From positions 1 through 45,022 of the forward strand of contig CACNCX010000003.1 of NCBI GenBank assembly GCA_902619045.1: DNA of 45,022 nucleotides, written 5' to 3'. Positions within the stretch are counted from its first letter, which is position 1, and each line of letters starts with the position of its first letter. The DNA comes from an uncultured Alphaproteobacteria bacterium. GTDB taxonomy: Bacteria; Pseudomonadota; Alphaproteobacteria; HIMB59; GCA-002718135. Shown here piece after piece: positions 26,236-41,451 of the stretch. Made by a program: the position numbers and the translations under genes. Under the pieces are notes generated by a model, which saw only the letters and a program-made list of their open reading frames with translations, ran no database searches and had not been told where the DNA came from.

Positions 26236-26756
26236 TTAACTGCTCGATAAGAAAAAATAAAATCTTCCTGTATTTTAGATTCAATAGCTCCTTTTCTTCT
26301 TGATCGCACTAAATCAATAGCTTCTTGTTTTTCATAATTAAATTCAACAAGTAAAATAGCAGCTATAGTGCCAGCTCTTCCTTTTCCTCCACGACAATGT
26401 AAGACTATATTTTTACCATCTATCAATTCGTTCTTTAATAAAACTTTTGTTGTTTCCCATTTATATTTAAAATCTTTATCTGGTGCTCCCATGTCATAAA
26501 TGGGTAAATGGTACCAATGTAATTTATGTTCATAAATATTTTTGACAAACAAAGTTTTATCACACAATTTTTCAAATTCGCTATCTTCAACAAAAGAAGT
26601 AATAGAACTACAATTATTATTTTTAAATATTTCTAATTCGTTTGCTAAAATTGTTTCTTCAAATAAACCATTAGAGTTAAGACCTGGGAAAGAAGTTAAT
26701 ATAATTTTTCCTGCAAATGACTTAGAGTCAATAAAATCATAATTGCTAAATTGCAT
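26232..26756 (-). CDS. Cys-based dual-specificity/tyrosine phosphatase (CDKN3-like)
   Basis: HLPIYDMGAP and VLHCRGGKGRAGT (HCxxGxGR). Confidence 0.85.
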   Translation of the reverse strand: MQFSNYDFIDSKSFAGKIILTSFPGLNSNGLFEETILANELEIFKNNNCSSITSFVEDSEFEKLCDKTLFVKNIYEHKLHWYHLPIYDMGAPDKDFKYKWETTKVLLKNELIDGKNIVLHCRGGKGRAGTIAAILLVEFNYEKQEAIDLVRSRRKGAIESKIQEDFIFSYRAVN

Positions 26757-27332
26757 TTACGCTTGTTTAGCTAAAAAAGACTCTCTTGCTTCTTCTAAAT
26801 AGGGACGGAAATGTTCAACATCGGGAGTTTTTTTATCTAGAACTTTTGCTAAATCATCAAATCTCCTAAGCTCTATTGCTTCATCCATAAAAGGTTTGCT
26901 TATAAATGCATCTGCTTCTTCTTTTGTGAAAGGACCGCCTTGAACTTTTAATGAAAGTTTCGATGCTTCTGATAGGCTATCATAATAACCCTCTTCAACA
27001 CTTGATAAATATCTTTTTGAGTCAACATGTGCTCTAATTGGTAAAATAACATCCTCACCAAAATATTTTTTTAAAAAATCAGCACCTAAATTTTCATGAT
27101 GACCATCTTTGCCTTCATGAATGGGATCGCCGTCCTCATAGATAAGGTGGCCAACATCATGCAGTAATGCTGCAGCAATTGTTGGTCCTGGTAATTTATT
27201 TTTTTCAGCAAGTTCAGCGCATTGGAGTGCGTGCTCAAGCTGTGTCACATCCTCATTACCATATTGAATATCAGCACCTTTTGTTTTCAAAAGATCTAAG
27301 AGATAATCTACAATATTTTCTTTCATTCTCAT
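26757..27332 (-). CDS. phnZ: HD-domain phosphonate oxygenase PhnZ-like
   Basis: YGNEDVTQLEHALQ, LLHDVGH, HENLGA, HVDSKRYL, LSEASKLSLKVQGGP, LRRFDDLAK; divergent from phnW. Confidence 0.8.
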   Translation of the reverse strand: MRMKENIVDYLLDLLKTKGADIQYGNEDVTQLEHALQCAELAEKNKLPGPTIAAALLHDVGHLIYEDGDPIHEGKDGHHENLGADFLKKYFGEDVILPIRAHVDSKRYLSSVEEGYYDSLSEASKLSLKVQGGPFTKEEADAFISKPFMDEAIELRRFDDLAKVLDKKTPDVEHFRPYLEEARESFLAKQA

Positions 27333-27420
27333 TTATAATTAACTTATTAGAAAATAAATTCAATTCCAACTTTAATAAGATTGATCAAATTTATAATAAT
27401 ATTTATTAAGTAAATATTTA

Positions 27421-28518
27421 ATGGATAAAAAATTATTAACCCCTGGGCCTCTCACGACATCGATGTCAACAAAAGAGGCAATGCTTCATGATTGGGGTTC
27501 GAGAGATACAAAATTTATTGATCTCAATGCATCAATTAGAGATTCCCTTGTTAAATTAATAGACGGTGAAGATAAATATCAATGTGTTCCAATGCAGGGA
27601 AGTGGAACTTTTGCTGTAGAGTCGATGGTGAGCTCTCTTACTCAAAAAGATTCTAAAATTCTGATTCTGATCAATGGTGCTTACGGACAAAGAATGAAAA
27701 AAATGTGCACATATTTAGGGAGAGATTTTATTGAATATGAAGTTGCTGAACATGAAGTACATGACATCAATAAAATTGAAGAGTTAATTGATAACAACAA
27801 CTTAACACACGTCTTTGCTGTATATTGTGAAACAACATCGGGTATTTTAAATCCTATTGAAGACATTGCAAAATTGGTTGAAGGGAAAAATTTATCGTTA
27901 TTCATCGATGCAATGAGTGCCTTTGGTGCATTACCCTTAAGTTCTAAAACAATTACTTTTGATGCTGTAGCCGCTTCATCAAACAAATGCTTAGAAGGTG
28001 TGCCAGGTGTTGGTTTCATTCTTGTAAAAAATGAAGTTATTCAAAATGCAAAAGGCAATAGTCACTCACTAAGTCTAGACTTGTATGATCAATGGCAAGC
28101 AATGGAAAAAAATAAACAATGGCGATTTACACCTCCAACACACGTATTAGCTGCATTCAACCAAGCTATTGAAGAACATAAAGAACAAGGCGGTGTAGAA
28201 GGAAGAGGTAAAAGATATAAAAAAAATTGTGAAATTATTTGTAATGGAATGAAAGAGTTGGGATTTGAGCAACTACTTCCTGATAATTTACAAGCACCAA
28301 TTATTATTACTTTTAAACAACCTAATGATCCTAAATTTAACTTTGACCAATTTTATAATGCTCTTAGTGAAAAAGATTTTTTAATTTATCCAGGAAAACT
28401 AACAGTGGCAGAAACTTTTAGAATTGGGTGTATTGGTAATTTAAATGAACAAGACATGATGGATACAATAAAAGCTGTAAAAGAAGTTGTTACTGAGTTG
28501 GGACTAACATTAAACTAA
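27421..28518 (+). CDS. phnW: 2-aminoethylphosphonate--pyruvate transaminase
   Basis: LLTPGPLTTS, DWGSRD, QGSGTFAVE, CETTSGILNP, SSNKCLEGVPG, QWRFTPPTH, IYPGKLT. Confidence 0.95.
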   Translation: MDKKLLTPGPLTTSMSTKEAMLHDWGSRDTKFIDLNASIRDSLVKLIDGEDKYQCVPMQGSGTFAVESMVSSLTQKDSKILILINGAYGQRMKKMCTYLGRDFIEYEVAEHEVHDINKIEELIDNNNLTHVFAVYCETTSGILNPIEDIAKLVEGKNLSLFIDAMSAFGALPLSSKTITFDAVAASSNKCLEGVPGVGFILVKNEVIQNAKGNSHSLSLDLYDQWQAMEKNKQWRFTPPTHVLAAFNQAIEEHKEQGGVEGRGKRYKKNCEIICNGMKELGFEQLLPDNLQAPIIITFKQPNDPKFNFDQFYNALSEKDFLIYPGKLTVAETFRIGCIGNLNEQDMMDTIKAVKEVVTELGLTLN

Positions 28519-28525
28519 CAAAACA

Positions 28526-29158
28526 ATGACAAAAGAAATTGAAATACCTTTAGTTAAAGCAACAAATGAAAATCTTAAAGGATATGGGTATTTAATCGAT
28601 AGTTTTGAAAATAGTGATATTGAAATTGTTACTTGGCCAAAACAAGGATGGCGTGACATAGAAGAGGGAACTGGTAATGAAGGTGGAACTACCGAAGGTT
28701 CTTTTGATACCTGGTGGCAAGGTGACGTGCTTTATGGGCAAAATAATGCTGTTCAACATAAGAGCGATTATGAAGTAGATGGAAAATATATACTGGGTTA
28801 TGCCAATAATCCTGATCAAGAATTACAAAAAGATAAATATTCAGATCCAACAAAAATTTTTTTATGGCATGCAAATTATCATCCTGATGGAGGTCAGCTT
28901 TTCTTTCCTGAAGAAAATAAACCATTTATTTGTCCTTTAGCCTTACCTACAGACGACATTGAACCAGAACATTTTAAAGCATTTTATTGTGACGGATCAA
29001 AAGGTTTGTATATTCATCCAAATATTTGGCATGAAGGGGTGTTTCCAGTTACAGAAAAACAATCGTTTCAAGGAAAACAAGGTAAAGTACATGCAAGAGT
29101 TAGCATCGACTTAAAAGAGGAATTTAATAAGTATATTTATTTTAAAACTGCGATCTAA
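28526..29158 (+). CDS. Ureidoglycolate-lyase-like cupin protein
   Basis: ATNENLKGYG, NYHPDGGQLFFP and GLYIHPNIWHEG resemble the AllA-family H..G.Q.F.P / G....WH pattern. Confidence 0.6.
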   Translation: MTKEIEIPLVKATNENLKGYGYLIDSFENSDIEIVTWPKQGWRDIEEGTGNEGGTTEGSFDTWWQGDVLYGQNNAVQHKSDYEVDGKYILGYANNPDQELQKDKYSDPTKIFLWHANYHPDGGQLFFPEENKPFICPLALPTDDIEPEHFKAFYCDGSKGLYIHPNIWHEGVFPVTEKQSFQGKQGKVHARVSIDLKEEFNKYIYFKTAI

Positions 29159-29178
29159 TTATAAATTTATATTTAATA

Positions 29179-29967
29179 ATGAAAATTATTCACCTTTCAG
29201 ACCCTCATATTTATATTGATAAGATTCATGGCATAGATCCTGTCAGTAAATTTAAAAAAGCATTAACTCATATAAAAAATAATCATGGTGATGCAGATTT
29301 ATTTGCCATCACAGGTGATATTACAGACTTAGGTGATAAAGATTCTTATCAGTTATTTTTAAAAATAATTGATGAAGCAGGTCTGCCGAAGAATTTAAAT
29401 CCTCAACTAATTATAGGTAATCATGATAACAGAGATGAATTTAAAATAAACTTTCCTAATATTGAAACCGATCCAAATGGATTTATTCAATACTTTAAGG
29501 ATATAGATAATAAACGTTTAATTTTTATAGATACTAATCTGATTAACACTCACCAAGGACATTATTGTGAAGAGAGGCAAGAATGGTTAAATAATATTTT
29601 AAGTAAGACTAATACGGATACGTACATCTTTATGCATCATAATCCACTGGCATTAGTAAAAGAGGAAAGTGATGGAATAGGATTACAACAAAAAAAAGAG
29701 TTTCAACAAATTTTAACTAAAAATAATAATATAATAAAACATATTTTTTTTGGTCATCAACACATTACAAGTTCTGGCTCTTATTGTGGTATTACTTTTT
29801 CCTCCCCAAGAAGTACTTGGTCTCCTCTAATACCTAACTTTTCAAATGAATATCGTTTAGGAACGGCTAATACAGATACAAATTATAATGTTGCAATAAT
29901 TCGATCTGACGCCTTAATTATTCATACAGAGGATTTTTTAAAAACAGAAGTTAATTGGTTTAAATAA
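29179..29967 (+). CDS. Metallophosphoesterase/phosphodiesterase (CpdA/GpdQ-like)
   Basis: HLSDPH, TGDITD, IGNHDNR, FMHHNP, FFGHQH. Confidence 0.85.
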   Translation: MKIIHLSDPHIYIDKIHGIDPVSKFKKALTHIKNNHGDADLFAITGDITDLGDKDSYQLFLKIIDEAGLPKNLNPQLIIGNHDNRDEFKINFPNIETDPNGFIQYFKDIDNKRLIFIDTNLINTHQGHYCEERQEWLNNILSKTNTDTYIFMHHNPLALVKEESDGIGLQQKKEFQQILTKNNNIIKHIFFGHQHITSSGSYCGITFSSPRSTWSPLIPNFSNEYRLGTANTDTNYNVAIIRSDALIIHTEDFLKTEVNWFK

Positions 29968-29971
29968 AAAA

Positions 29972-31078
29972 TTATTTTTTTTCGATTACAAATATTTCAT
30001 TGTTAAAATAAAGACCTTTATTTTTAGCAACAATGTTTTGAACAATTTTTTCATAGTTTTTAGTTTTTTCTACTTTCATTACTTTGTCGTCATCCATTTG
30101 ATTGACATATATGGAGGCATTCCAAGCAGAAAAAACTAATGATGTCGCTATACCTCCGCTGATTTCTGTTGGTAGAGCTCTCAATTTACATTTAATAATT
30201 CTTTTTTCTCCAAAAGATAATCTTCTTAATAAATCTTTATCTAAATTTTTCTTAAGATAAGAAATGATACTATTTCCAAGAGAAGGAAATGGGTCCTCTT
30301 TTGGCCAAATTTTACGAATTATTTCATTAGCAGGATCTTTTCCTGAAGCATGAATAGTTAATAATTTCCCTTTTGATTTTAACGCTCTAATCATTGGTTC
30401 GATGACATATTTTGATTTCTTTTCTGCTGTGATTCTTGAACGATAAGGCTGTGAAGCAATAATAAGATCAAATTTATTATCTGATTTTTTTTTGGTAGGT
30501 ATTAATTCATTTACATTAAATTCTTGATCTTCGCGGTAGATAACCATGACTGAAGGCTCTTTATAAGTATGGTTACCTGACTTTTTATTAATTTCTATAT
30601 TCCATTTTTTTTCTAAAAATTCATTTTGTTTTCTTAATTGTTGGGCAAATTCAAGAGAGGTATCTCCTTTTAATTTAATAATATTCCAATTAATTTTTTT
30701 CTGTTTAACTTCATTTTTTGATTTTAGGTTTGCAGCTTCAGCGTAGTGTAGATTTGAAATGACAAAAACCGTATTCTTATGTTCAACAAACCTATCGGGT
30801 AATTTTTCTAAACCTAATCTTACATCTTCTATGCTTATTTCTTTTGTGCAAACTAATAAAGGTACGTTAGGCTTAGCCTCGTGGCACTGACGCATAACAT
30901 TCATAAGTAAGGAACCATCACCCATACCAGCATCAAATATTTTTATACCAGGTTTTTGAGGTTTAATTTTATTTACGTGAGGGCGTATCGCATCAGCAAT
31001 TTGATTTTTTTCATTTGTTGTTGTGACAAATAATAAGTATTTTTGTCTGTTATCATAAAACCTGAAATTTTTTTTCAT
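29972..31078 (-). CDS. Uncharacterised protein with a SAM-methyltransferase-like motif I
   Basis: 368-aa ORF with IFDAGMGDG and FDLIIASQPY; function unknown. Confidence 0.7.
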   Translation of the reverse strand: MKKNFRFYDNRQKYLLFVTTTNEKNQIADAIRPHVNKIKPQKPGIKIFDAGMGDGSLLMNVMRQCHEAKPNVPLLVCTKEISIEDVRLGLEKLPDRFVEHKNTVFVISNLHYAEAANLKSKNEVKQKKINWNIIKLKGDTSLEFAQQLRKQNEFLEKKWNIEINKKSGNHTYKEPSVMVIYREDQEFNVNELIPTKKKSDNKFDLIIASQPYRSRITAEKKSKYVIEPMIRALKSKGKLLTIHASGKDPANEIIRKIWPKEDPFPSLGNSIISYLKKNLDKDLLRRLSFGEKRIIKCKLRALPTEISGGIATSLVFSAWNASIYVNQMDDDKVMKVEKTKNYEKIVQNIVAKNKGLYFNNEIFVIEKK

Positions 31079-31080
31079 TA

Positions 31081-32193
31081 CTAATAAAGTCCCATTGATT
31101 TAGCAGAAGAGATGAAGGCTTCTTTATTGCCAATAAAGTTTTTACCTCGTTCCCCTAAAAACGCATCATCTACTATATTATTCCATTCTTGAATAGGAAC
31201 TTTTATTTCATTTAAGTTAAGAGGAACCTCTAAAGAACGCATAAATTCACTCAGATGATTTGCGGCATTCTCTAGGTTATCGTTAAAAATTAGTTTTAGT
31301 CTTTCTTCAGCTACACTATCAATGCCAACCATACTTTTAGTAATCATGGGTAATGTAAATGAGCAAGCAATACCATGTTGAATGCCGTAATTGAGCGTCA
31401 CAGGGTATGATAGATTGTGCGCAATAGCAGTTTTTGTATTGGAAAACGCTAAGCCAGCATGAACGCATGCCAGTGCAATGTTTGAACGTAATTCAACGCT
31501 TCTTAAATCTTTAGCGAGAAGTGGTAAATTTTCTAATACTAATTTTGATGCTTGTATTGCATGAGAAGCAGAAATTGGGTTTGCATTAATATTCCAAATA
31601 CTTTCCATTGAATGAGAGAGAGCATCTAAACCTGTTGAAATGGTCAAGCCTAAAGGCTTATCAACCATAATTGATGGATCGATAATTGCTTTTTCTGCAT
31701 AAAGAGATTTATGCGCCAAAGATAATTTATTGTTTTTTTCTTTATCCCAAATTGTGGCCCAACACGTAAGCTCACTTGATGTTCCTGAAGTTGTAGGTAT
31801 TGCAATAATCTTGATTGGATTTTTGACTCTTGGACTTTTCTTATTGCGAACGAAATCTGTTAGATATTCTTGTTTATCTTTAAAAGCAGCAATTGCTTTA
31901 GCTGTGTCTGTAACAGAGCCACCACCTATAGCTAAAATATAATCTACCGATTCATTGATTGAAGAAAATTTTTTTTGTAGCTCTAAAATATCCTTATAAT
32001 CTGGATTAGGCTGAACATCCGTCATAATGGATAGTGGTGGATTTGAAGAAGATTTTAATTCATCGCTATATTTTTTAAAAATTTCTTCTGGATGAGTGAT
32101 TATGATGTAGTTCTTATTTTTAAGAGCATCATGTACTTCTGTAAATCTATTTTCTCCAAAGATAATTTCAACAGGATTAAAATAATTCCACAT
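31081..32193 (-). CDS. Phosphonate-associated iron-containing alcohol dehydrogenase (PsrA-like)
   Basis: MWNYFNPVEIIFG, GGGSVTDTAK, IPTTSGTSSE, GLDALSHSMES, FSNTKTAIAHNLSY, HGIACSF. Confidence 0.85.
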   Translation of the reverse strand: MWNYFNPVEIIFGENRFTEVHDALKNKNYIIITHPEEIFKKYSDELKSSSNPPLSIMTDVQPNPDYKDILELQKKFSSINESVDYILAIGGGSVTDTAKAIAAFKDKQEYLTDFVRNKKSPRVKNPIKIIAIPTTSGTSSELTCWATIWDKEKNNKLSLAHKSLYAEKAIIDPSIMVDKPLGLTISTGLDALSHSMESIWNINANPISASHAIQASKLVLENLPLLAKDLRSVELRSNIALACVHAGLAFSNTKTAIAHNLSYPVTLNYGIQHGIACSFTLPMITKSMVGIDSVAEERLKLIFNDNLENAANHLSEFMRSLEVPLNLNEIKVPIQEWNNIVDDAFLGERGKNFIGNKEAFISSAKSMGLY

Positions 32194-32197
32194 TACA

Positions 32198-33277
32198 TTA
32201 AATTGATTTTGCCGCTTTAGTTAAAATTGTCATTTTCTCAATTGCTTGTTCTCGAGTAAAGAAACCTAAACCACAATCTGGTGCAGCTATTAAGCGGTGT
32301 TCATCAATATGTTCAAGTGAATCTTTGATACGAACTCTTACTTCTTCAACAGATTCCATTCTGCTTTTTGCAATATCAATAAATCCAAAAATTACTTTTG
32401 TTTTAGTAAATTTTTCTAAAAGATTTAAATCATTATGCCTATGTGAGTCTTCTAAAGATACTTCATCAATAGTTGAATCATCTACAAGTGATGCAATTCT
32501 ATCATAAGCATCTAAATCAGCCTTTTTATAACCTTCTGAATCTAATGAATTAGGATAACCACAACAAATATGGCAAACACGTTGCACTTCTTTAGGTATA
32601 CCATGCATCATTCTTTCTAAATTTTCCATACCATATGAATGAGCTTCATCGGGCTTTCTAGCAAATACTGGTTCATCAATTTGAATATACTGACAACCTG
32701 CATCCACAAGTGCCTTAATTTCTTTATTGAGAGCTAATGCTAAATCAAAACCAAGTTTTTTCATGTCATCATAGTAATTGTTGGCAATTGAATCTGTAAT
32801 TGTCATTGGTCCAGGTAGCGTAATTTTAACTGGGTTTTTTGTAAATTGTTGTGCACTCTTCCAGTCTAAATGCATACGTATTTCTTTACTTGAAATCGGT
32901 GCAACAATAGTTGGAAGGTCAGCTTCGAACGCACCTTGTCTTACTGACTTATGTGTAACTTCCTTAAAACTTACTCCATTTAAAAATCGGCATTGATATA
33001 ATACGTAACTCTCGCGTCTGACTTCTCCATCTGTTGGAACATCAATACCCGCATTTACTTGATCAGTTATAACTTCTTTAATTGCTGCTAAAAATAATTT
33101 TTCAGCATCTGCACCTGCAGACTCTAATGCTTTTTCATATGCGCCAGGTGACCAATTTGATAATAATCCTTTTGACGCTTTTCTCTCTTCTTCTGATTTT
33201 GTCCCTAAAAACCAATCTTGAATAGGTGTTTGTTTCGGTTTTGGATAAGCACCTATTGTAGTTGTTTTAAGAGGCAT
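32198..33277 (-). CDS. Core (single-barrel) cobalamin-independent methionine synthase family protein
   Basis: TTTIGAYPKP, TDGEVRR, TLPGPMT, IQIDEP; Zn ligands HICCG and APDCGLG. It lacks the N-terminal MetE half. Confidence 0.85.
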   Translation of the reverse strand: MPLKTTTIGAYPKPKQTPIQDWFLGTKSEEERKASKGLLSNWSPGAYEKALESAGADAEKLFLAAIKEVITDQVNAGIDVPTDGEVRRESYVLYQCRFLNGVSFKEVTHKSVRQGAFEADLPTIVAPISSKEIRMHLDWKSAQQFTKNPVKITLPGPMTITDSIANNYYDDMKKLGFDLALALNKEIKALVDAGCQYIQIDEPVFARKPDEAHSYGMENLERMMHGIPKEVQRVCHICCGYPNSLDSEGYKKADLDAYDRIASLVDDSTIDEVSLEDSHRHNDLNLLEKFTKTKVIFGFIDIAKSRMESVEEVRVRIKDSLEHIDEHRLIAAPDCGLGFFTREQAIEKMTILTKAAKSI

Positions 33278-33301
33278 CTATTTTTACTCCCATTTAAATT
33301 T

Positions 33302-33334
33302 AAAATAAAACAGCGGCTTTTATAAAGCCGCTGT
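33302..33334 (-). terminator. Intrinsic terminator after the ABC substrate-binding gene
   Basis: Perfect 11-bp stem ACAGCGGCTTT-TAT-AAAGCCGCTGT (33310-33334), followed by TTTATTTT on the minus strand. Confidence 0.85.
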
Positions 33335-33364
33335 AATAAAAAGTTAATAATAAATAATCTCAAA

Positions 33365-34618
33365 TTACATAAGATCGTTTATTTCTTCCATCATTTCTTC
33401 TTGGAGATCACCCATATCATCAGCGTCGCCTGTAGCAATTTCTTCTGTGTAATCATAGATTACCTGTGTAACAGCTAATCCATTTTCTCCAGGATATGCA
33501 AACCAATCTGCAAGAAGTGGAAGTTGTTCAACTGCAGTAAGTTTATTAGGGTTTTTACTATAGAAATCACCTAATAATTCATTCGCTGCTTTGTTTGGTG
33601 GAACATATCCAGTTGTTTCAGCAACTAATGCAGCACCGATACCTGATGTAATGAACTTTAAGAAAGTCCATGCAGCATCAACTCTTGCTGGATCATCAGA
33701 TGTAGACACTAACATTGCAGCGTTTCCACCTGCTGGTAATCTTGCTGGTGTTCCATTGTTAACTCCAGCCATTCCAGGGAATGGTGCAGTTTTTAAAACA
33801 AAGTCTGCCTTTGCAGCATTAACTGAACCCAAGCTTGAAGTAGACCAGAACATCATACCAATAGTACCTGCGTTAAACGCAGCTTGACCATCAGCAATTG
33901 AATAGTTTGGCATATTACATCCGCTCATGATTGCTTTCATTTGCTCTAACGTTGCAAGTCCTGCATCACCACCCATATTTACAGCTCCATCTTTAACCAT
34001 TGGAACATTCTGAGTGTGCATTAATGCTTGGTGGAACCAGTTACCTGTGATGTTCCAACCAAAGTATAGAGTTCCTTTACCTGCTGCTTCCAATTTATTA
34101 CATGCTGCAATAACTTCGTCCCAGTTAGTTGGAATACTATTTACACCTGCTTCAGCTAATAAATCCATGTTATAATATCCAACTGGCGTTGATACAGAAA
34201 ATGGTAATCCATAAACTTCACCACCAAATGTTGAAAGACTTAACATAGCAGAATGGTAACCATCTTTTTCAAAAGCAGCTTCTTTTGCAATAAATGGCTC
34301 TAAAGACTTAGCAATACCTTTGTCAACTAGAGGTGCTTGTCTGTTAAGACCTTGCATTGTTACATCTGGTAAATTACCTGAAGTAGACTCTCTGAAGATT
34401 GTTGCAGTTGCATCCTCATAGTTTTCATAAGTTGCTCTAAATTTAACTTGAATATCTGGATGTGCTTTTTCAAACTCTGGCATAATAGCTTGAAAAGTTA
34501 CATCGAATAATCCTGAATAAGGATAAGCTACTTCTATTTCAATAGACTTAGCTGAATTAACAGAACCATAAAAACCAAAAGCTAATACGGCAGCCAATCC
34601 TGTAATTAATTTTTTCAT
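33365..34618 (-). CDS. ABC transporter substrate-binding protein (UgpB-like, family 1)
   Basis: Signal peptide, LPDV, YGLPFSVSTPVGYYNMDL, PTNWDE, TTGYVP; GGAGG SD. Confidence 0.85.
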   Translation of the reverse strand: MKKLITGLAAVLAFGFYGSVNSAKSIEIEVAYPYSGLFDVTFQAIMPEFEKAHPDIQVKFRATYENYEDATATIFRESTSGNLPDVTMQGLNRQAPLVDKGIAKSLEPFIAKEAAFEKDGYHSAMLSLSTFGGEVYGLPFSVSTPVGYYNMDLLAEAGVNSIPTNWDEVIAACNKLEAAGKGTLYFGWNITGNWFHQALMHTQNVPMVKDGAVNMGGDAGLATLEQMKAIMSGCNMPNYSIADGQAAFNAGTIGMMFWSTSSLGSVNAAKADFVLKTAPFPGMAGVNNGTPARLPAGGNAAMLVSTSDDPARVDAAWTFLKFITSGIGAALVAETTGYVPPNKAANELLGDFYSKNPNKLTAVEQLPLLADWFAYPGENGLAVTQVIYDYTEEIATGDADDMGDLQEEMMEEINDLM

Positions 34619-34654
34619 TTAATCCCTCCGATTCAAATATAATAATTAATCTAA

Positions 34655-34699
34655 CACGTAGCCTCAAAGGGTTACAATTTTATTACGAAAATATTACTA
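34655..34699 (-). promoter_or_regulatory. Triple Pho-box promoter of the substrate-binding gene
   Basis: Minus strand reads TAGTAAT-ATTT-TCGTAAT-AAAA-TTGTAAC-N10-TACGTG. Confidence 0.72.
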
Positions 34700-34755
34700 A
34701 AAAATAAGCTTATTTTTCCACAGCATTAAGAAAAATTAGAGAAAAACTGGTTTAT

Positions 34756-36198
34756 TTACCAAGGTAGCGAAAAGGTTTTTACATTAGTAAAACTTTTCAT
34801 TGCTTCAATAACACCCTCTTTGTAACCAAGACCTGAATCTTTAATTCCTCCAAAAGGAGACATTTCAATTCTATAGCCTGGAACTTCCCAAATATTTACA
34901 GTGCCAACATTTAAGCCTTGAATATATTTTTTTGCTCGCATGAAGTTATTTGTACATACACCAGATGATAATCCGAATGCAGTTGAATTAGATATTTTCA
35001 TTACAGCTTCATCGTCATTAGGCACACGAATGATTGGTATAACTGGACCAAATGTTTCTTCTAAAACTAATTCACTTTTAGGATCAACATGATCTACAAC
35101 TATTGGAGGTAACAAAGCACCCTTTCTTCCAGGGTGATATAAAATTTTTGCACCGTCTTCTTCTGCCATTGAAACTCTTTTATCAAAAAGTTCTGCAGCT
35201 TGAGCATTAACAACTGTACCTAAGTCTGTTTCCATATTCATAGGATCACCAAATTTAATTTTCTTAGCACGCTCAAGAGCCATTTCAACAAATTGATCTG
35301 CAATAGATTCTTGAACCAGTATTCTTTTAACAGCTGTACAACGTTGACCAGAATTTTTCGTTGCTCCCGTAACAGCTAGCTCAACAGCTTTTTTAAGATC
35401 ATCACCATCTAAGTCATTTAAAACAATTAATGGATCATTACCACCTAACTCAAGAACAGTTCTTTTGTATCCAGCTTGTTCGGCAATTAATTTTCCTACA
35501 CCTACACTACCTGTAAAAGTAATGAGATCAATATTTGGATTCTTGATCATTTCTGATCCGATATCTTGAGGCCATCCAGTTACAACTGAAAACATTTCTG
35601 GTGGCAGACCTGCTTCATATAAAACATCAGCGAGTACCATTGCTGTTAAAGGTGTTAATTCTGTCTGCTTACATACTGTACAATTATTAGTTGCAATTGA
35701 AGGAGCAATTTTATGCGCTACCATATTCAAAGGGTGATTAAATGGAGTGATTGCTGAAATTGCCGTTAAAGGTTCTCTTATGGTAAATATTTTTCTCGCT
35801 TTTCCATGCGGAGTTAAATCACAAGAAAATATTTCTCCATCATCAAGAATACAAAGTTGAGCCGTTAAAGAAAAGACATCAAAAGCTCTTCCTACTTCGT
35901 ATAGAGAATCTTGTTTTGAAATACCAAGTTCTAAAGTAATAATATCAGAAATTTCTTCTTTTCTTTTAACAAGTACTTCTGCAGCAGTTTGAAGAATTTT
36001 TTGTCTCTCGTATCTTGTAAGTTTAGGTTGGTAATTTGCAGCAATATCTAAAGCCTTTCTTGCATGCTCTGCAGTACCGGCTGGAACCGTTCCGATTACT
36101 TCACCTGTAAAAGGGTACTCAACATTTATTGTTTTATCTGAAGTAACTTTTTCTCCAGCAATACGCATTGCTTCATTAATCATTTTTTTGTGCATCAT
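34756..36198 (-). CDS. phnY: Phosphonoacetaldehyde dehydrogenase
   Basis: ALDH motifs ([31 protein letters not shown]) plus [14 protein letters not shown] and [14 protein letters not shown]; coupled to phnA. Confidence 0.92.
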
Positions 36199-37436
36199 AG
36201 GGCTCCATTTATTGCATAATAAAATGCATCATAGTTATATAATTGTTTGCTAGTATCTAAGTTTTGTAATTTTAAATTTGATATGAATGGAACCTCTCTT
36301 TCATGGAGTCCTCCATGAGAACGTAAAGGTTCATTTAATCCAGAAAGATTGTGTTTATCTTCCGATGAACCAATAGTCATAAATTCTGAAGACATACATA
36401 TAATATCCCCCATTCTATCAGGAGGTAAATTATAAGTAGAGCATCCTTCATCTTTTGTTAAAACAACTTCTATATCTTTTATTTCTTTAATAGCATTTAC
36501 AACTGAATCTACCCTGCTCTTGTCTTCTAAATAAATTGTTGCAAAAGAACCAAGTGAACCATGATGAACGACATATGGATCTGTAATTGGTAGGATGACT
36601 TTAGCCATGTTTGGTTCAAATTTTTTATCTAAATAATCTTGTAAAAATATTGCATTAGGTGAACCATCTTCTTTTGATTTTGGTTTCATTCCGTGATCTG
36701 CTGTGATGATTATAGAAACATTCTCCTTATTTAAAAGACCAATATATTTATCAAACATTGCATAAAATTTATTTGCTGTTTCATTTCCCGGAGCATATTT
36801 GTGTTGAATATAATCTGTAGTCGATAAATACATGATATTTGGTTTGAACTCTTCAAGAAGCTTTACACCTGCAGCCATTACAAATTCAGAAAGTCCTTCA
36901 GAATATACTTCTGGCACTGGCATCCCCAACCAATCGTTTACATTATCTATACCATTGAGATCTTTTGCTGCTTGATCAGATTTTTCAGCAGAAAAACAAA
37001 TAGCTCTCTCATCATCAAAACTTAATCCGTTTCCTAAAAGTGTTCTCAACTTGTCTTTTGCAGTAACAAGAGCAATTTTAGAACCAGAATTGTAAAATTT
37101 TTCAAAAATAGTTGGTGCTCGCATATATTTTGGATCATTCATCATTACTTCTTCACCAGTCTCAGGTGTATAAAAGAAGTTTCCGCATATACCGTGTACA
37201 GAACTTGGTTGGCCTGTTACAATCGAAATGTTATTTGGATTTGTAAAACTTGGAATAGCGCTGTGAACAAGTAGGTTTTCACCACTTGCAATTAATTTAT
37301 CAAGATTTGGTGTAAGATTAGATTTTGATGCTTCTTCGAGATACTCTTTTTGACTACCATCAAGGCATATAACAATAGCAGTTTTTGAGAAAGAGCTTGG
37401 ATATTCTCTTTTATTAATTTCTAAATTATCGGACAC
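36195..37436 (-). CDS. phnA: Phosphonoacetate hydrolase
   Basis: [54 protein letters not shown]; GTG start. Confidence 0.95.
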
Positions 37437-37460
37437 AAATTCAACTAATATATATTATTA

Positions 37461-37494
37461 AAAATACAAATTTATAGTTATCTGGTAGTTAAAC
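37461..37494 (-). promoter_or_regulatory. Possible Pho-box-type promoter of phnA-phnY
   Basis: Minus strand reads GTTTAAC-TACC-AGATAAC-N10-TATTTT; degenerate. Confidence 0.35.
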
Positions 37495-37514
37495 TCAATC
37501 ATAATTTGAATATT

Positions 37515-37558
37515 TGTTAATAAAATTGAAATAAAACTGAAATAAATAGATTTAAAAT
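37515..37558 (+). promoter_or_regulatory. Triple 11-bp repeat (Pho-box-like) upstream of the ABC ATPase operon
   Basis: TGTTAAT-AAAA-TTGAAAT-AAAA-CTGAAAT-N9-TAAAAT. Confidence 0.55.
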
Positions 37559-37612
37559 ATTCTCAAATTTAATAAAATTTTGTAGATTAAAGTTAAGATA
37601 CAGGGGGAATGA

Positions 37613-38746
37613 GTGGGAACAATATCGCTTAAAAATATTTCAAAGTCATTTGGGTCTACACAAGTACTTAATAATTTGAATGTTGATATAAACGATGGAG
37701 AATTCTTAACATTAGTTGGTCCATCTGGTTGTGGTAAATCTACATTACTTAGAATAATTGCAGGATTGGAACAGCAGACTTCAGGCGATGTATTAATTGA
37801 TAATAAAAATGTAAATAGAGTTAGAGCCAGTGAAAGAGATTTGGCAATGGTATTCCAGTCATATGCTCTTTATCCTCATCTCACAGTAAGAAGGAATTTA
37901 GAAACCCCATTAAGACTAAGGGATTATAATGCATTTGAAAGACTGCCCTTAATTGGTAATTTTTCTCCAAGCAAAAAAGAGAAAACAGAATCTATAAATC
38001 AATTAGTAAATAAAACTTCTGAAACTCTAAAAATTTCAGAACTATTGGATAGAAAACCAGGACAATTGTCAGGTGGTCAAAGACAAAGAGTTGCTCTTGG
38101 TCGTGCTATGGTTAGAGAGCCTGTTGCCTTTTTAATGGATGAACCTCTTTCAAATTTAGATGCGGCTCTGAGAGTTCACATGCGATCTGAACTATCTGAA
38201 CTTCATAATTCACTTAAAACTACTTTTGTGTACGTAACACATGATCAAGCAGAAGCGTTAACTATGTCTTCTAGAATGGCTGTGATGATTGATGGAAATT
38301 TATTACAACTAGATACGCCTCAAGAAGTATATGACAATCCTTCCTCATTAAGTGTAGCTCAATTTGTTGGAAGTCCAAAAATAAATATATTTAAAGGAAC
38401 TGCGGACTCTGGTGGGACGGTTGGTTTTCTCAACGTTAACCTAAAAAGAAAAAGTTCTGAAAGTAATACAGACTTACATATTGGTATTCGACCAGAACAT
38501 TTAGAAATTACAAATGAAAATAATGAAAATACATTTAGTGGAACAGTTGCATATAGAGAAAATTTAGGTTCAGATATTTTCTTTCATGTAAATATTGAAG
38601 ACGGTTCAAATAAAATAATTGTAAGGGGCTTACCACAATTTACACACCAAATTTCAAACGGTTCTAGTGTGAATATTAAAAGAGTTTCAGATAAAGCATT
38701 ACTATTTAATCAAGCAGGAATGAGAGTTCAATTTACTAATGCATAA
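37613..38746 (+). CDS. ABC transporter ATP-binding protein (UgpC/MalK-like)
   Basis: [47 protein letters not shown]; GTG start after a GGGGG SD. Confidence 0.92.
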   Translation: MGTISLKNISKSFGSTQVLNNLNVDINDGEFLTLVGPSGCGKSTLLRIIAGLEQQTSGDVLIDNKNVNRVRASERDLAMVFQSYALYPHLTVRRNLETPLRLRDYNAFERLPLIGNFSPSKKEKTESINQLVNKTSETLKISELLDRKPGQLSGGQRQRVALGRAMVREPVAFLMDEPLSNLDAALRVHMRSELSELHNSLKTTFVYVTHDQAEALTMSSRMAVMIDGNLLQLDTPQEVYDNPSSLSVAQFVGSPKINIFKGTADSGGTVGFLNVNLKRKSSESNTDLHIGIRPEHLEITNENNENTFSGTVAYRENLGSDIFFHVNIEDGSNKIIVRGLPQFTHQISNGSSVNIKRVSDKALLFNQAGMRVQFTNA

Positions 38747-39695
38747 TTCAAAAGCTCACATATGGTTTATTGCACCAGCAATCATACTGATGATAATTAT
38801 TTTAATCTTTCCTCTTTTTCTTGCAGGAGGAATTTCTTTTACTGACTACAATTTAGGAAACAAAACATTCGAGTGGGTTGGACTAGAAAATTATGACAAA
38901 ATGTTCAATCGAAAAACATATGTCAAAATGATTTGGGCCACAGCGACGTATGTTATTGTTGTCGTTCCAATTTCTGTTGTACTTGGATTATGTGCTGCTA
39001 TGCTCTTAAACTCACTAAGGTTTGGCGCTGATATATATAAAACAATTTTTTTTCTTCCAGTTATGGCAACTCTTCTTGCAATGGCAATTGCATGGGAATT
39101 TACTCTTCATCCAACATTAGGAATTGTAAATAGTTTTTTAGCGAATGGATGTGGAGGAGTTAGGGAATTCATTCTTGGTTTTCATTGGTTGCCATGGGTA
39201 GACTCACAAGAAAGCTGGTACGCTATAGCATGTGCAAACAACATGGATTTTCCATATTGGTTAAAACAAAAAAATACTGCGATTTGGACAGTATGTTTCA
39301 TAGGAATTTGGCAGGCTTTTGGTTTTAATATGGTTTTATATTTAGCTGGCTTAACAAGTATACCAAGGGAGTTATACCAAGCTGCAGAAATGGACGGGGC
39401 TAAATCTACATGGGAGCAATTTAAACTTGTTACATGGCCAATGCTTGGTCCAACAACGTTGTTTGTTGTCACTATTACTACCATTAGAACATTTCAGGTA
39501 TTTGATACCATCGAAATACTTACTAAAGGTGGTCCATCAAAAACAACATATGTCATGATGTATGCAATTTTTGAAAAAGCTATTCAACAAAACTTAACAA
39601 GTATCGGTGCAGCAATCACTGTTGTCTTTATTGGATTTATTCTTGTGTTAACGTTTTTCCAAAGATATGTCATTGAGAAGAGGGTTCATTATTAA
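38739..39695 (+). CDS. ABC transporter permease (UgpA/MalF-like)
   Basis: GLENY, LAGLTSIPRELYQAAEMDGA (EAA motif), VTWPML. Confidence 0.9.
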   Translation: MHNSKAHIWFIAPAIILMIIILIFPLFLAGGISFTDYNLGNKTFEWVGLENYDKMFNRKTYVKMIWATATYVIVVVPISVVLGLCAAMLLNSLRFGADIYKTIFFLPVMATLLAMAIAWEFTLHPTLGIVNSFLANGCGGVREFILGFHWLPWVDSQESWYAIACANNMDFPYWLKQKNTAIWTVCFIGIWQAFGFNMVLYLAGLTSIPRELYQAAEMDGAKSTWEQFKLVTWPMLGPTTLFVVTITTIRTFQVFDTIEILTKGGPSKTTYVMMYAIFEKAIQQNLTSIGAAITVVFIGFILVLTFFQRYVIEKRVHY

Positions 39696-40588
39696 TGGAA
39701 GCTAAACAATATATTGGGGAAGGTTGGAAGCATGCAATCTTAATTATTGGTGCTATCGTAGTGATGCTTCCTTTTTATATGATGGTTTCTATGTCATTAA
39801 AATCTCAGCAAGAAATCCAATCAATTTCTGGTGGTCTTATTGGTGCGCAAGAAACTCAAACGTTTCCCGTATGTGTTAAAACTGGTTATTCAGAAGAAAC
39901 ATGTACAATGAAGCCATATCAATACAACTATTGGTTTGCATTTGAAAAAGCCCCTATTCCTAGATACTTAATGAATGGTGTCATTGTTACTTTATCAATC
40001 TTCATTATTCAGGTTTTAGTCGCCTTACCGTGCGCATATGCACTCGCCAAGTTACGGTTTTACGGACGAGAATTTGTTTTCTCGATGGTTTTATTTTGCT
40101 TGCTCATTCCAGTTCATGGAATTGCACTTCCATTATATGTTATGTTGGCCCAGGCAGGATTAGTTGACACCTATTCCGCCTTAATACTCCCCTGGACAAT
40201 ATCGGTGTTTGGAATCTTTTTAATGCGGCAATTCTTTATGACTGTGCCCGATGAATTAATTGATGCCGCCAGGATGGATGGTATGGGAGAGTACGCAATC
40301 GTATGGAAAGTAATGCTTCCAACTGCAATACCAGCGTTACTTGCTTTTGCAATATTCTCAGTTGTTGCACACTGGAATGATTATTTCTGGCCACGTATGG
40401 TAATAACAGGAAATAGAGATCTCTTTACTCCGCCGCTTGGTATAAGAGAATTCAGAGGTGGAATTGATAGTGACGAATTTGGTCCTATGATGGCTTCGAT
40501 AGTTACTGTAACTGTTCCTCTTATTGTTGCTTTTATAATCGCGCAAAAACGATTTATTGAAGGAATTACTTTGACAGGCATGAAGTAA
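39695..40588 (+). CDS. ABC transporter permease (UgpE/MalG-like)
   Basis: FLMRQFFMTVPDELIDAARMDG, WNDYFWP, QKRFIEGI. Confidence 0.9.
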   Translation: MEAKQYIGEGWKHAILIIGAIVVMLPFYMMVSMSLKSQQEIQSISGGLIGAQETQTFPVCVKTGYSEETCTMKPYQYNYWFAFEKAPIPRYLMNGVIVTLSIFIIQVLVALPCAYALAKLRFYGREFVFSMVLFCLLIPVHGIALPLYVMLAQAGLVDTYSALILPWTISVFGIFLMRQFFMTVPDELIDAARMDGMGEYAIVWKVMLPTAIPALLAFAIFSVVAHWNDYFWPRMVITGNRDLFTPPLGIREFRGGIDSDEFGPMMASIVTVTVPLIVAFIIAQKRFIEGITLTGMK

Positions 40589-40602: not shown

Positions 40603-41451
40603 ATGGCATTGTCAGTAAATTTTATTTTTATCTTAATTCTTGTATCTGCTCTATGTCATGCAGTTTGGAGTGCTATAATAAAATCAAGTAAGAACCCTTT
40701 ATCGTTAATGGGTATAACATCTGTCTTAGAAGTTACTATTTTTTTACCTTTGACATTTACTGTTCCATTTCCAACTTTAGAGGTTTGGTATTTTTTAATT
40801 GCAACCGTCATCATTCATGTCATTTATAGATTAAATGTAATTTATTCTTATAGATACGGAGATCTTTCGTACATATATCCAATTTCTAGAGGAAGTTCAT
40901 GTTTGTTTGTAGCGATCATTAGTATTTTATTTTTAAGTTCTGATATTAGCGTTGCTGGTTTTGTAGGAATATTAATTGTTTGTATTGGATTATTTTTAAT
41001 TTCTTATTCTAAAAATTTATCTTTTAACTTCAGAGGTTTTGCTCTCGCAATATCAACGGCTATTCTAATTACTGCTTACACTTTAGTTGACGGGGTCGGG
41101 GTTAGACTTTCTGAAAATGGTTTTTCCTATATTTACTGGCTCTTCACACTTAATGGAATACCTTTACTAATTATTGGTTTGATCTCGAAAGATGGTTTAC
41201 GAAAAAAAGAAACGTACACTTTTAGATCGGGGATTGCTGCTGGTGTATTTGCAACAAGTAGTTATGCGATTGTTGTTTGGAGTATGCAATTTATAGAAAT
41301 AGCTTATGTCTCTAGTATTAGAGAAATAAGCATTGTGTTTGCTGCAATTATTGGAATGCTTTTCTTATTTGAGAAGAATGCAAAATCTCGAATAATACCT
41401 TCTATTTTAATAGTGAGTGGTATTTCGGTTGTTTATTTTCAAATTCTTTGA
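40603..41451 (+). CDS. EamA/DMT-family transporter
   Basis: SALCHAVWSAIIK, YRYGDLSYIYPISRG, YTLVDGVGVR, SIREISIVFA; ~10 TM segments. Confidence 0.85.
   Translation: MALSVNFIFILILVSALCHAVWSAIIKSSKNPLSLMGITSVLEVTIFLPLTFTVPFPTLEVWYFLIATVIIHVIYRLNVIYSYRYGDLSYIYPISRGSSCLFVAIISILFLSSDISVAGFVGILIVCIGLFLISYSKNLSFNFRGFALAISTAILITAYTLVDGVGVRLSENGFSYIYWLFTLNGIPLLIIGLISKDGLRKKETYTFRSGIAAGVFATSSYAIVVWSMQFIEIAYVSSIREISIVFAAIIGMLFLFEKNAKSRIIPSILIVSGISVVYFQIL

Follow-up and report, generated by a model that had tools for sequence, protein, structure and literature searches.

What does an ATP-binding cassette (ABC) importer of the kind known for glycerol phosphates bring into a cell when its genes lie among those for phosphonate breakdown, and what would a cytoplasmic phosphodiesterase (PDE) encoded close by have to do with it? 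This question is raised by contig CACNCX010000003.1 (assembly GCA_902619045.1) of an uncultured member of the Alphaproteobacteria (HIMB59 lineage), a stretch of 45,022 nucleotides that we refer to as the window; it makes up contig C3, in full, of an assembly of 0.97 Mb (54% completeness) and has a GC content of ∼31%. An earlier note, made from the sequence alone, had proposed that esters such as glyceryl-2-aminoethylphosphonate are imported here, cleaved in the cytoplasm, and fed to PhnW, PhnY, and PhnA. Our analysis points to a modified version, in which the importer would feed two-carbon phosphonates to a pathway of PhpC or PhnW followed by PhnY and PhnA, and the PDE would open those that arrive in ester-bound form. 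We consider this quite possible, though still somewhat short of probable; the ligand of the importer and the substrate of the PDE are the parts that we infer, whereas gene identities, synteny, the pairing of importer and PDE in relatives, the conserved phosphate-binding residues, and the coverage by metatranscriptome contigs are seen directly. Of the earlier proposal, the pairing of importer and PDE and an organophosph(on)ate ligand stand, while the link to PhnW, an obligate role of the PDE, and linkage to phn genes outside SAR11 do not.

An importer of the UgpB branch among phosphonate genes

Nineteen window proteins were scanned against Pfam, and their NCBIfam scores were compared with the curated cut-offs (Table 1). 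PhnW, PhnY, and PhnA, the enzymes on which the earlier proposal was built, all scored above their cut-offs and lie clustered within 10 kb. The sole ABC system of the cluster is indeed of the Ugp/Mal type and not of the PhnCDE or PhnSTUV type: by NCBIfam and Pfam it is a CUT1 system of the UgpB branch, with UgpC, UgpA, UgpE, and UgpB as top NCBIfam models, every one under its cut-off. Its substrate-binding protein (SBP), which carries a Sec-type leader (MKKLITGLAAVLAFGFYGSVNSA), reaches 65 bits against a UgpB cut-off of 411. The known importers of 2-aminoethylphosphonate (AEP) compiled by Murphy 2021 are AepXVW, AepP, AepSTU, PhnSTUV, and PhnCDE, whereas the system here is of the CUT1/UgpB branch; the likeness to the AEP pathway of that paper lies in the three enzymes above their cut-offs and in the position of the cluster among phosphate-acquisition genes. 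According to the portion of Murphy 2021 (PMC8316502) that deals with these proteins, AepX and AepS belong to pfam13343, a family common to them and PhnS, and AepP is GlpT-like. The Pfam scan of the SBP gave only PF13416 and PF01547, with no match to pfam13343, and this difference in family rules out its identity with AepX. PhnD (TIGR01098) was not found in any of the five genomes searched. Given that PhnD is missing from these genomes and that the SBP is not a pfam13343 protein, no ABC importer other than the CUT1 system accompanies the pathway genes. In the phosphonate transporter literature that we searched, this importer type, which belongs to a widespread family, is not listed, and our literature search returned no description of the ligand of the importer family or of its link to phosphonate clusters; the supplementary tables of Westermann 2023 and the supporting information of a 2025 PNAS paper on UgpB may bear on this point.

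A profile built from 20 members of the SBP family and searched against the PDB ranked UgpB structures first (9lff, E value of 1e-32; 4aq4, 2e-29; 6r1b, 5e-24); 4aq4 and 6r1b are presumably the UgpB proteins of E. coli and M. tuberculosis. Entry 9lff, entitled "sn-glycerol-3-phosphate-binding protein," we take to be UgpB of Phaeobacter MED193, since nine of nine named residue types match chain 9lff_A at a presumed offset of +20. For this protein, the relevant section of the 2025 PNAS paper names Tyr64, Ser143, Ser266, and Tyr342 as phosphate ligands, Gly303, Glu88, and Arg393 as the residues holding the glycerol hydroxyls, and Trp188 with Trp191 as the clamp; it also describes the two Tyr and two Ser as strictly conserved among those members of the UgpB branch that bind phosphate-containing ligands and not among glucose binders. 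The four phosphate ligands align with Y67, S143, S259, and Y338 of the window SBP and occur without exception in the 20 family members, as do the counterparts of Gly303 (G298) and Trp188 (W188). Glu88 and Arg393 correspond to Gly90 and Thr384, replacements that are equally invariant in all 20, and Trp191 falls in a deletion (family motif GWNITGNW). Thus, the phosphate-coordinating residues are common to UgpB and the SBP family, but the glycerol ligands Glu88 and Arg393 and the second clamp Trp are found only in UgpB. Since the four phosphate ligands are kept, the SBP ligand is predicted to be an organophosph(on)ate and not a sugar, and the presence of a phosph(on)ate group in it is very likely. 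With Glu88 and Arg393 replaced throughout the family, glyceryl esters bound in the manner of UgpB become unlikely, which weakens the glyceryl ester suggested earlier as the ligand but keeps the general idea of an organophosphorus compound; the ligand is predicted not to be sn-glycerol-3-phosphate and probably not to be held via a glycerol moiety. No genomic context described below shows any change in the pocket residues that were mapped.

A locus scan with one genome per species found 471 loci with a relative of the SBP, of which the best 80 were kept. Of these, 77 are low-GC loci with SBP identities of 87 to 100%; their records name uncultured Alphaproteobacteria and, in one case, a Pelagibacteraceae, and the label "SAR11-type" that we use for them is our own assignment. 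Wherever the contig reaches, the 77 loci share one core, with PhnY and PhnA on one side of the SBP, a MetE-like protein and an iron-dependent alcohol dehydrogenase (Fe-ADH) on the other, and an ATPase-permease-permease unit diverging from phnA. Identities to the window proteins range over 87 to 100% for the SBP, 80 to 100% for PhnY, 69 to 100% for PhnA, 68 to 100% for the MetE-like protein, and 57 to 99% for the Fe-ADH. The arrangement recurs in 77 related loci and is covered by metatranscriptome contigs, and it is not a product of chance.

These loci fall into group A, with SBP identities of at least 93% (55 loci, 48 of them flanked by 8 kb or more next to the Fe-ADH), and group B, with identities of 87 to 88% (22 loci, 18 of them with such a flank). 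Among the loci with enough flank, the PDE gene adjoins a gene for a methyltransferase-fold protein in 46 of 48 from group A, and none of the 18 from group B encodes a PDE, PhnW, cupin, or PhnZ within 10 kb. The EamA permease was not found in group B loci (no match in L056-L081), and in five group B genomes (1.2 to 1.4 Mb) no PhnW was found above the cut-off (best score, 103 versus 401 bits); the only PDE relative, present in three of the five, is a paralog of 36% identity whose gene closes a ribose-type sugar operon. Within group A, three loci have the PDE without PhnW (L030, L034, and L040), two have PhnW and the cupin without the PDE (L047 and L048), and in six (L003-type) an additional CUT1 importer separates the PDE from cupin-phnW. 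The independent occurrence of PDE and PhnW suggests that phnW-cupin-PDE is one arrangement at a variable junction and not a conserved operon; PhnW-cupin, PhnZ, and the PDE are accessory genes at this junction. The earlier note had pointed to the co-orientation and close spacing of phnW, cupin, and PDE. The geometry is as it described, with all three genes on the plus strand and gaps of 7 nt (28519-28525) and 20 nt (29159-29178), but as steps of a route both PhnW and the PDE are dispensable: all 18 group B loci lack the two within 10 kb, and a true PhnW is missing from five of five group B genomes.

What is conserved with the importer is the Fe-ADH together with PhnY and PhnA. According to the sections of Piazza et al. 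(Protein Sci 2026, PMC13576164) on these enzymes, PhpC-type Fe-ADHs oxidize 2-hydroxyethylphosphonate (HEP) to phosphonoacetaldehyde, and PhpC with PhnY-PhnA, often without PhnW, is the mark of HEP-specific clusters. Pelagibacterales are absent from Table S1 of that paper, and a search of its text found "transporter" once and "phosphodiesterase" never; neither transporters nor esterases are discussed. In the part of Lockwood 2022 concerned with these genes, phnAWYZ reads mapped to Pelagibacterales, and phpC lay inside some AEP operons. The SAR11 cluster resembles the PhpC-PhnY-PhnA clusters of Piazza et al. in having a PF00465 Fe-ADH next to PhnY and PhnA, with no PhnW in one SAR11 subclade (group B), which thereby fits the HEP-specific pattern exactly, and differs from them by the CUT1 importer, the MetE-like gene, and the methyltransferase-fold gene. 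We infer that the window Fe-ADH would act as a HEP dehydrogenase in the direction that yields phosphonoacetaldehyde. Given that a PhpC-type ADH with PhnY-PhnA is conserved and PhnW is optional, HEP is more likely than AEP to be the conserved substrate, so that PhpC-PhnY-PhnA takes the place that the earlier note had given to PhnW as the partner of the importer. Judged by gene content, PhnW (for AEP) and PhnZ (for 1-hydroxy-2-aminoethylphosphonate [HAEP]) would be add-ons in this genome. As for other names for the dehydrogenase, PbfF was ruled out, as it is a pfam02826 protein and not an Fe-ADH, and "PsrA," the NCBIfam name of TIGR03405, traces to an uncharacterized Burkholderia homolog and is uninformative on function here.

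The phosphodiesterase and relatives of the importer outside SAR11

The PDE is GpdQ-like and lacks a signal peptide, as the earlier note had stated: its first metal motif lies at residues 2 to 10 (MKIIHLSDPH), and because it starts at residue 2 there is no room for such a peptide. Its best solved relatives are the PDB entries 2zo9, 2dxl, and 3d03 ("Phosphohydrolase," E value of 6e-13), which we take to be Enterobacter GpdQ, and Rv0805 (9e-13). The sequence match to these structures is weak (52 bits), but the complete set of metal motifs (DxH, GD, GNHD, HH, and GHxH) is common to them, all aligning with 2zo9. Of the NCBIfam models, the best is SpdA, a 2',3'-cyclic-nucleotide diesterase (175 bits; cut-off, 400), and CpdA gave 63 bits (cut-off, 225). 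GpdQ is active on phosphonate monoesters. A literature search combining GpdQ with operon and transporter terms returned no match.

Outside SAR11, we followed the importer in 16 loci with SBP identities of 41 to 68%, namely L078-L080, 11 loci from 400 evenly sampled alphaproteobacterial genomes (SBP match at an E value of ≤1e-80), and two Phaeobacter plasmids out of 17 Phaeobacter plasmid matches. The gene order ATPase-permease-permease-SBP-PDE was found in 14 of the 16, with the PDE gene directly 3' of the SBP gene and, in two of these, a second PDE. A divergent LysR gene (five loci) or another regulator often lies upstream, and the flanks hold mixed regulators (LysR, GntR, and LuxR-type two-component) and unrelated genes, with no recurrent catabolic partner. 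Of the two exceptions, L103 lacks a PDE and carries the ABC genes in two copies, with a sulfatase gene close by. In the other, a single alphaproteobacterial contig (L104/L123, 555-4438), the SBP (62% identity) is followed by a gamma-aminobutyrate (GABA)-type aminotransferase (above the TIGR00700 cut-off) and a class-III-like zinc-dependent alcohol dehydrogenase; the latter was considered as a second link to HEP, but its score with the phosphonate-associated ADH model (122 bits; cut-off, 328) shows no such link. The claim that the ABC system and a GpdQ-like PDE form a real functional pair is thus borne out by these loci, and judged by gene order the pairing reads as real and ancient.

In E. coli, ugpBAEC-ugpQ encodes the Ugp importer and a cytoplasmic glycerophosphodiesterase. 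The relatives found here have the same layout, with the SBP, two permeases, the ATPase, and a cytoplasmic diesterase in one operon, but their diesterase is a metallophosphoesterase and not a member of the GDPD family. On the Phaeobacter plasmids, the SBP orthologs (62 to 65% identity) lie in a LysR-ABC-metallophosphoesterase cassette, and since the six cassette genes stand among plasmid and mobile genes, the cassette appears to be self-contained. In Phaeobacter sp. MED193, the genes MED193_11288-11308, which encode an ATPase, the SBP of a "sugar ABC" system, and a "predicted phosphodiesterase," are induced by phosphorus starvation, and the SBP also in a phoB mutant, with no substrate assigned in the portion of Westermann 2023 (PMC10132767) that covers them; they have the gene order of the cassette, and by order and annotation they are candidate counterparts of it. 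In one non-SAR11 locus (L079, 9501-13203), a gene of the animal-haem-peroxidase family and one for a patatin/NTE-like phospholipase with a cyclic-nucleotide-binding domain lie beyond the cassette PDE.

The PDEs themselves also point to a bond with importers. The four SAR11 island alleles form one clade (support of 95/99), whose sister group, with weak support (80/65), consists of PDEs from those cassettes that have the SBPs most similar to theirs, in a tree whose SAR11 rows deviate in composition and whose outgroup branch is very long. An allele of 70% identity always has genes for two permeases and a further UgpB-like SBP next to it (6 of 6 loci), one of 62% adjoins another CUT1 system (3 of 3), and the 35 window-type alleles have no extra importer. 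This covariation of PDE alleles with adjoining CUT1 importers (9 of 9) suggests that every PDE has its own matching importer, and the window PDE would then be matched to the core ABC system. In L003 (14652-18599) and L030 (14650-20293), these divergent alleles (70 and 62%), each with its own extra CUT1 importer, lie between flanks that are 98% identical, and the pattern looks like cassette swapping at one junction.

As for linkage to phn genes, by which the earlier note had proposed to check its claim, the ABC system lies with them in the 77 SAR11-type loci, but it is near them in none of the 16 loci outside SAR11. At the level of genomes, however, PhnJ, of the carbon-phosphorus (C-P) lyase, is present in nine of nine cassette genomes of the sample of 400 versus 50 of 391 others (13%; one-sided Fisher test, P = 1.9e-8), and PhoX, a control unrelated to phosphonates, is present in seven of nine versus 122 of 391 (P = 0.006). 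Part of the PhnJ signal reflects a general phosphorus-scavenger lifestyle. The pattern is as expected if the PDE frees phosphonate for a C-P pathway encoded elsewhere, but is no proof of it; PhnA and PhnX were each above the cut-off in only two of the 11 SBP-bearing genomes. Another genome from the genus of the window organism (G209, 96% complete) has PhnJ and no SBP match at an E value of ≤1e-80, suggesting that the genus carries alternative phosphonate modules.

Competing accounts of the imported compound

In the scheme that we favor, the region would be one cargo module of a SAR11-type phosphate-starvation island, with two divergent core units, phnA-phnY-SBP-metE-like-phpC (with the methyltransferase gene in some cases) and ATPase-permease-permease. 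The UgpB-branch ABC importer would bring in an organophosph(on)ate. Two-carbon phosphonates would be converted to phosphonoacetaldehyde, HEP being the conserved entry via the PhpC-type Fe-ADH and AEP entering also via PhnW in this genome; PhnY would then turn phosphonoacetaldehyde into phosphonoacetate, and PhnA would split phosphonoacetate into acetate and phosphate. The GpdQ-like PDE would be the ancestral cytoplasmic partner of the importer family, as UgpQ is of Ugp, and in this genome it would most likely cleave ester-bound imports (phosphonate monoesters or phosphodiesters), while free forms would bypass it.

Several observations weigh against this scheme. The PDE is missing from 18 of 18 group B loci, which means that an ester-only ligand cannot be general, and in the window its gene is co-oriented with phnW-cupin, outside the ABC operon. 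PhnA, PhnY, PhnW, PhpC, and the MetE-like protein are found within ∼10 kb of the importer in none of the 16 non-SAR11 loci, and the PhnJ test, which spans seven families with its nine cassette genomes, ignores kinship and is accompanied by the enrichment of PhoX. The Fe-ADH scores under the TIGR03405 cut-off (363.3 versus 423.7 bits). The SBP gene has promoter-like and terminator-like sites of its own, so that its position does not prove cotranscription with phnY, and the MetE-like and methyltransferase-fold genes do not fit a simple HEP scheme.

A stronger version of our scheme would have the cassette, together with its SAR11 form with PhpC-PhnY-PhnA, dedicated to the uptake and de-esterification of phosphonate monoesters; this we hold to be possible but on the unlikely side. 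Candidate substrates would be esters of HEP or methylphosphonate from marine dissolved organic matter or phosphonoglycans. Both compounds occur as polysaccharide esters in marine high-molecular-weight organic matter, as stated in the pertinent parts of Piazza 2026 (PMC13576164) and Lockwood 2022. In the phosphonate-catabolism literature that we searched, the uptake or release of ester-bound phosphonates is not covered, and among 12 papers listed for phosphonolipid head groups, no title describes a catabolic route for them. If true, dedicated uptake of monoesters would be a missing link between ester-bound marine phosphonates and C-P cleavage, a reaction that would fall to PhnA in SAR11 and to C-P lyase in roseobacters and rhizobia. 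Cells of the SAR11 type are very abundant, and knowing the ligand would identify a new part of the marine organic phosphorus that is bioavailable and would correct the current "sugar transporter" annotation of the importer genes.

Unlikely, though by no means far-fetched, is an account in which the ABC system imports only free HEP, AEP, or HAEP-type phosphonates and the PDE is an unrelated island accessory at the variable junction, acting, e.g., on nucleotide- or lipid-derived diesters. The combination of importer and PhpC-PhnY-PhnA without a PDE in all 18 group B loci fits this account, as do L047 and L048 with PhnW-cupin and no PDE, the group B paralog in a ribose-type operon, and the cyclic-nucleotide diesterase model that describes the PDE best. 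It would, however, leave the PDE jobless in the 14 of 16 non-SAR11 loci where SBP and PDE are operonic with no adjoining phosphonate enzyme, and it has to contend with pocket residues that are the same in every context and with the grouping, albeit weak, of the SAR11 PDE clade with the PDEs of the closest cassettes.

We regard as improbable that the locus holds a generic phosphodiester cassette (for 2',3'-cyclic nucleotides, dinucleotides, or lipid head-group diesters) that is merely co-located with the phosphonate genes, all of them Pho-regulated, with phosphonates entering through EamA, an MFS carrier, or another route. Even though phnA-phnY and phpC are interspersed with the importer genes in all 77 SAR11-type loci, including those of group B without EamA, PDE, or PhnW, none of the 16 non-SAR11 cassettes lies near phn genes, and promoter-like and terminator-like signals set off the SBP gene. 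The resemblance of the PDE to SpdA and the presence of an EamA permease of a "phosphonate-associated" family would also be in keeping with such a cassette, as would a Thermus dinucleotide-binding protein, placed in the UgpB branch in the part of the literature that deals with it, and PDB matches to 7c0f and related entries. Its main difficulties, beside the interleaving, are the lack of PhnD in five of five genomes and the occurrence of PhnJ in nine of nine cassette genomes versus 13% of others, an enrichment stronger than that of the PhoX control.

Very improbable is the strict glyceryl-AEP route, with this or similar glycerol esters from phosphonolipids taken up, hydrolyzed by the PDE, and passed on to PhnW-PhnY-PhnA in an obligate sequence, since the phnW-cupin-PDE order with its short gaps, one metatranscriptome contig bridging these three genes (28468-29927), and a UgpB-like importer with a GpdQ-like PDE have to be set against the replacement of Glu88, Arg393, and the second clamp Trp of UgpB in 20 of 20 family members, the independent occurrence of PDE (L030, L034, and L040) and PhnW (L047 and L048), the second ABC system that splits the PDE from cupin-phnW in L003-type loci, and a conserved entry enzyme that is PhpC and not PhnW.

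Island setting, expression, and accessory genes

The first 24 kb of the window form a phosphate-starvation island with phoB, phoR, pstBACS, phoU, ppk, ppx, and a PhoU_div/PHO4 pair, and the phosphonate region follows directly. Its minus-strand genes, from phnA to the methyltransferase-fold gene, converge on the plus-strand phnW-cupin-PDE, and the genes for the ATPase, the two permeases, and the EamA permease lie on the plus strand, divergent from phnA. Two copies of a pair of genes for a PlcP-like metallophosphoesterase and a glycosyltransferase are found in the island (14557-16360, plus strand, and 20817-22615, minus strand), genes of a kind that serves phosphorus-free lipid remodeling, and an aquaporin-like gene lies in the same island as ppk, ppx, and the PlcP-like pairs.

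Table 1. Features of the phosphonate region of the window, with the metatranscriptome contigs that bridge its genes
Feature	Position	Strand	Evidence
Dual-specificity/protein tyrosine phosphatase (PTP)-like phosphatase, accessory	26232..26756	-	Pfam PTP-SAK, 48.7 bits, and DSPc; abuts PhnZ-like gene, same strand
PhnZ-like HD-domain phosphonate oxygenase, accessory	26757..27332	-	TIGR03276, 202.4 bits (cut-off, 214.6)
PhnW, 2-aminoethylphosphonate:pyruvate transaminase, accessory AEP entry	27421..28518	+	NF010006, 511.5 bits (296); TIGR02326, 459.5 (400.8)
Ureidoglycolate-lyase-family cupin	28526..29158	+	PF04115, 39.9 bits
Class-III-type metallophosphodiesterase (PDE), GpdQ/Rv0805/SpdA-like, predicted cytoplasmic	29179..29967	+	Pfam Metallophos PF00149, 63.3 bits
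Class I S-adenosylmethionine (SAM)-dependent methyltransferase-fold protein, small-molecule type	29972..31078	-	AlphaFold and Foldseek
PhpC-type Fe-ADH	31081..32193	-	PF00465 (125 bits), PF25137; TIGR03405 "Phn_Fe-ADH," 363.3 bits (423.7)
Short MetE-like zinc alkyltransferase, core member	32198..33277	-	PF01717, 121 bits
Terminator-like hairpin directly 3' of SBP gene	33310..33334	-	11-bp stem, 6 G-C pairs, T-rich tail
Periplasmic substrate-binding protein (SBP), UgpB branch of CUT1	33365..34618	-	PF13416, PF01547
Promoter-like site 5' of SBP gene	34639-34667	-	Promoter scan
PhnY, phosphonoacetaldehyde dehydrogenase	34756..36198	-	TIGR03250, 797.4 bits (635.65)
PhnA, phosphonoacetate hydrolase	36195..37436	-	TIGR02335, 467.4 bits (407.55)
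ABC ATPase, UgpC/MalK type with TOBE domain	37613..38746	+	NF008653 UgpC, 386.8 bits (432); PF00005, PF08402
ABC permease, UgpA-like	38739..39695	+	PF00528; NF007852, 103.5 bits, under cut-off
ABC permease, UgpE-like	39695..40588	+	PF00528; NF008210, 128 bits, under cut-off
EamA/DMT permease, "phosphonate utilisation associated" type, accessory	40603..41451	+	TIGR03340, 144.9 bits (288)
Contig bridge phnW/cupin/PDE	28468-29927		Metatranscriptome
Contig bridge cupin/PDE/methyltransferase	29009-30061		Metatranscriptome
Contig bridge methyltransferase/Fe-ADH/MetE-like	30704-32530		Metatranscriptome
Contig bridge MetE-like/SBP	32532-34009		Metatranscriptome
Contig bridge phnY/phnA	35575-37370		Metatranscriptome

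Seawater metatranscriptome contigs from four runs of four studies cover the whole cluster, although such contigs do not prove single transcripts and may include DNA carry-over. In three of the four runs, the contig depth over the SBP gene is 10 to 100 times that of its neighbors, a hint only, as contig depth cannot rank genes, and in three of four the depth (of contigs only) falls at the hairpin 3' of the SBP gene. The promoter scan gave 52 sites versus a mean of 66 in shuffled sequence, which makes single promoter calls weak. The SBP gene probably forms a separate unit with strong expression, which is usual for genes of binding proteins. In one run (X1), a contig of depth 3 joins 27079 to 29708 via 35 other letters, possibly a strain variant without phnW-cupin.

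Around the variable junction, the dual-specificity phosphatase accompanies PhnZ in most window-type loci. The PhnZ-like protein, which stays below its cut-off, also matches the TmpB and PhnZ1 models, and no TauD/PhnY*-type 2-oxoglutarate dioxygenase was found among the 19 window proteins scanned. The cupin, which co-occurs with PhnW across loci, matches ureidoglycolate hydrolases in the PDB (E value of 2.5e-6), and Atlas clusters support the same family. In one SAR11-type locus (L077, 16778-19997), an extra pfam13343 SBP (63.7 bits) and an ATPase adjoin PhnZ and a second EamA gene; by family, this pair is a candidate AepX/PhnS-like AEP importer, absent from the window.

The MetE-like protein, of the cobalamin-independent methionine synthase family, has its best PDB match in 3rpd (E value of 9e-44), with the HxC, E, and C zinc-ligand motifs aligned, and a second paralog of 50% identity lies on contig C2 of the assembly. 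Homologs with 46 to 48% identity were found next to TmpA/TmpB and a carnitine dehydrogenase (L122, 9018-10187) and next to a betaine-aldehyde dehydrogenase (L121, 9081-10544). These neighbors hint at methyl transfer from quaternary amines, and suggest that the MetE-like homologs are a homocysteine methyltransferase family using quaternary-amine methyl donors. The methyltransferase-fold protein (368 amino acids) gave no Pfam or NCBIfam match; its AlphaFold model (pLDDT of 91.7) has a class I SAM methyltransferase fold, with histamine N-methyltransferase as the top Foldseek match (E value of 3e-11), and its family counts 773 representatives. In group B, a homolog of 33% identity is encoded on the opposite side of the ABC genes, next to an M24/creatinase-like gene.

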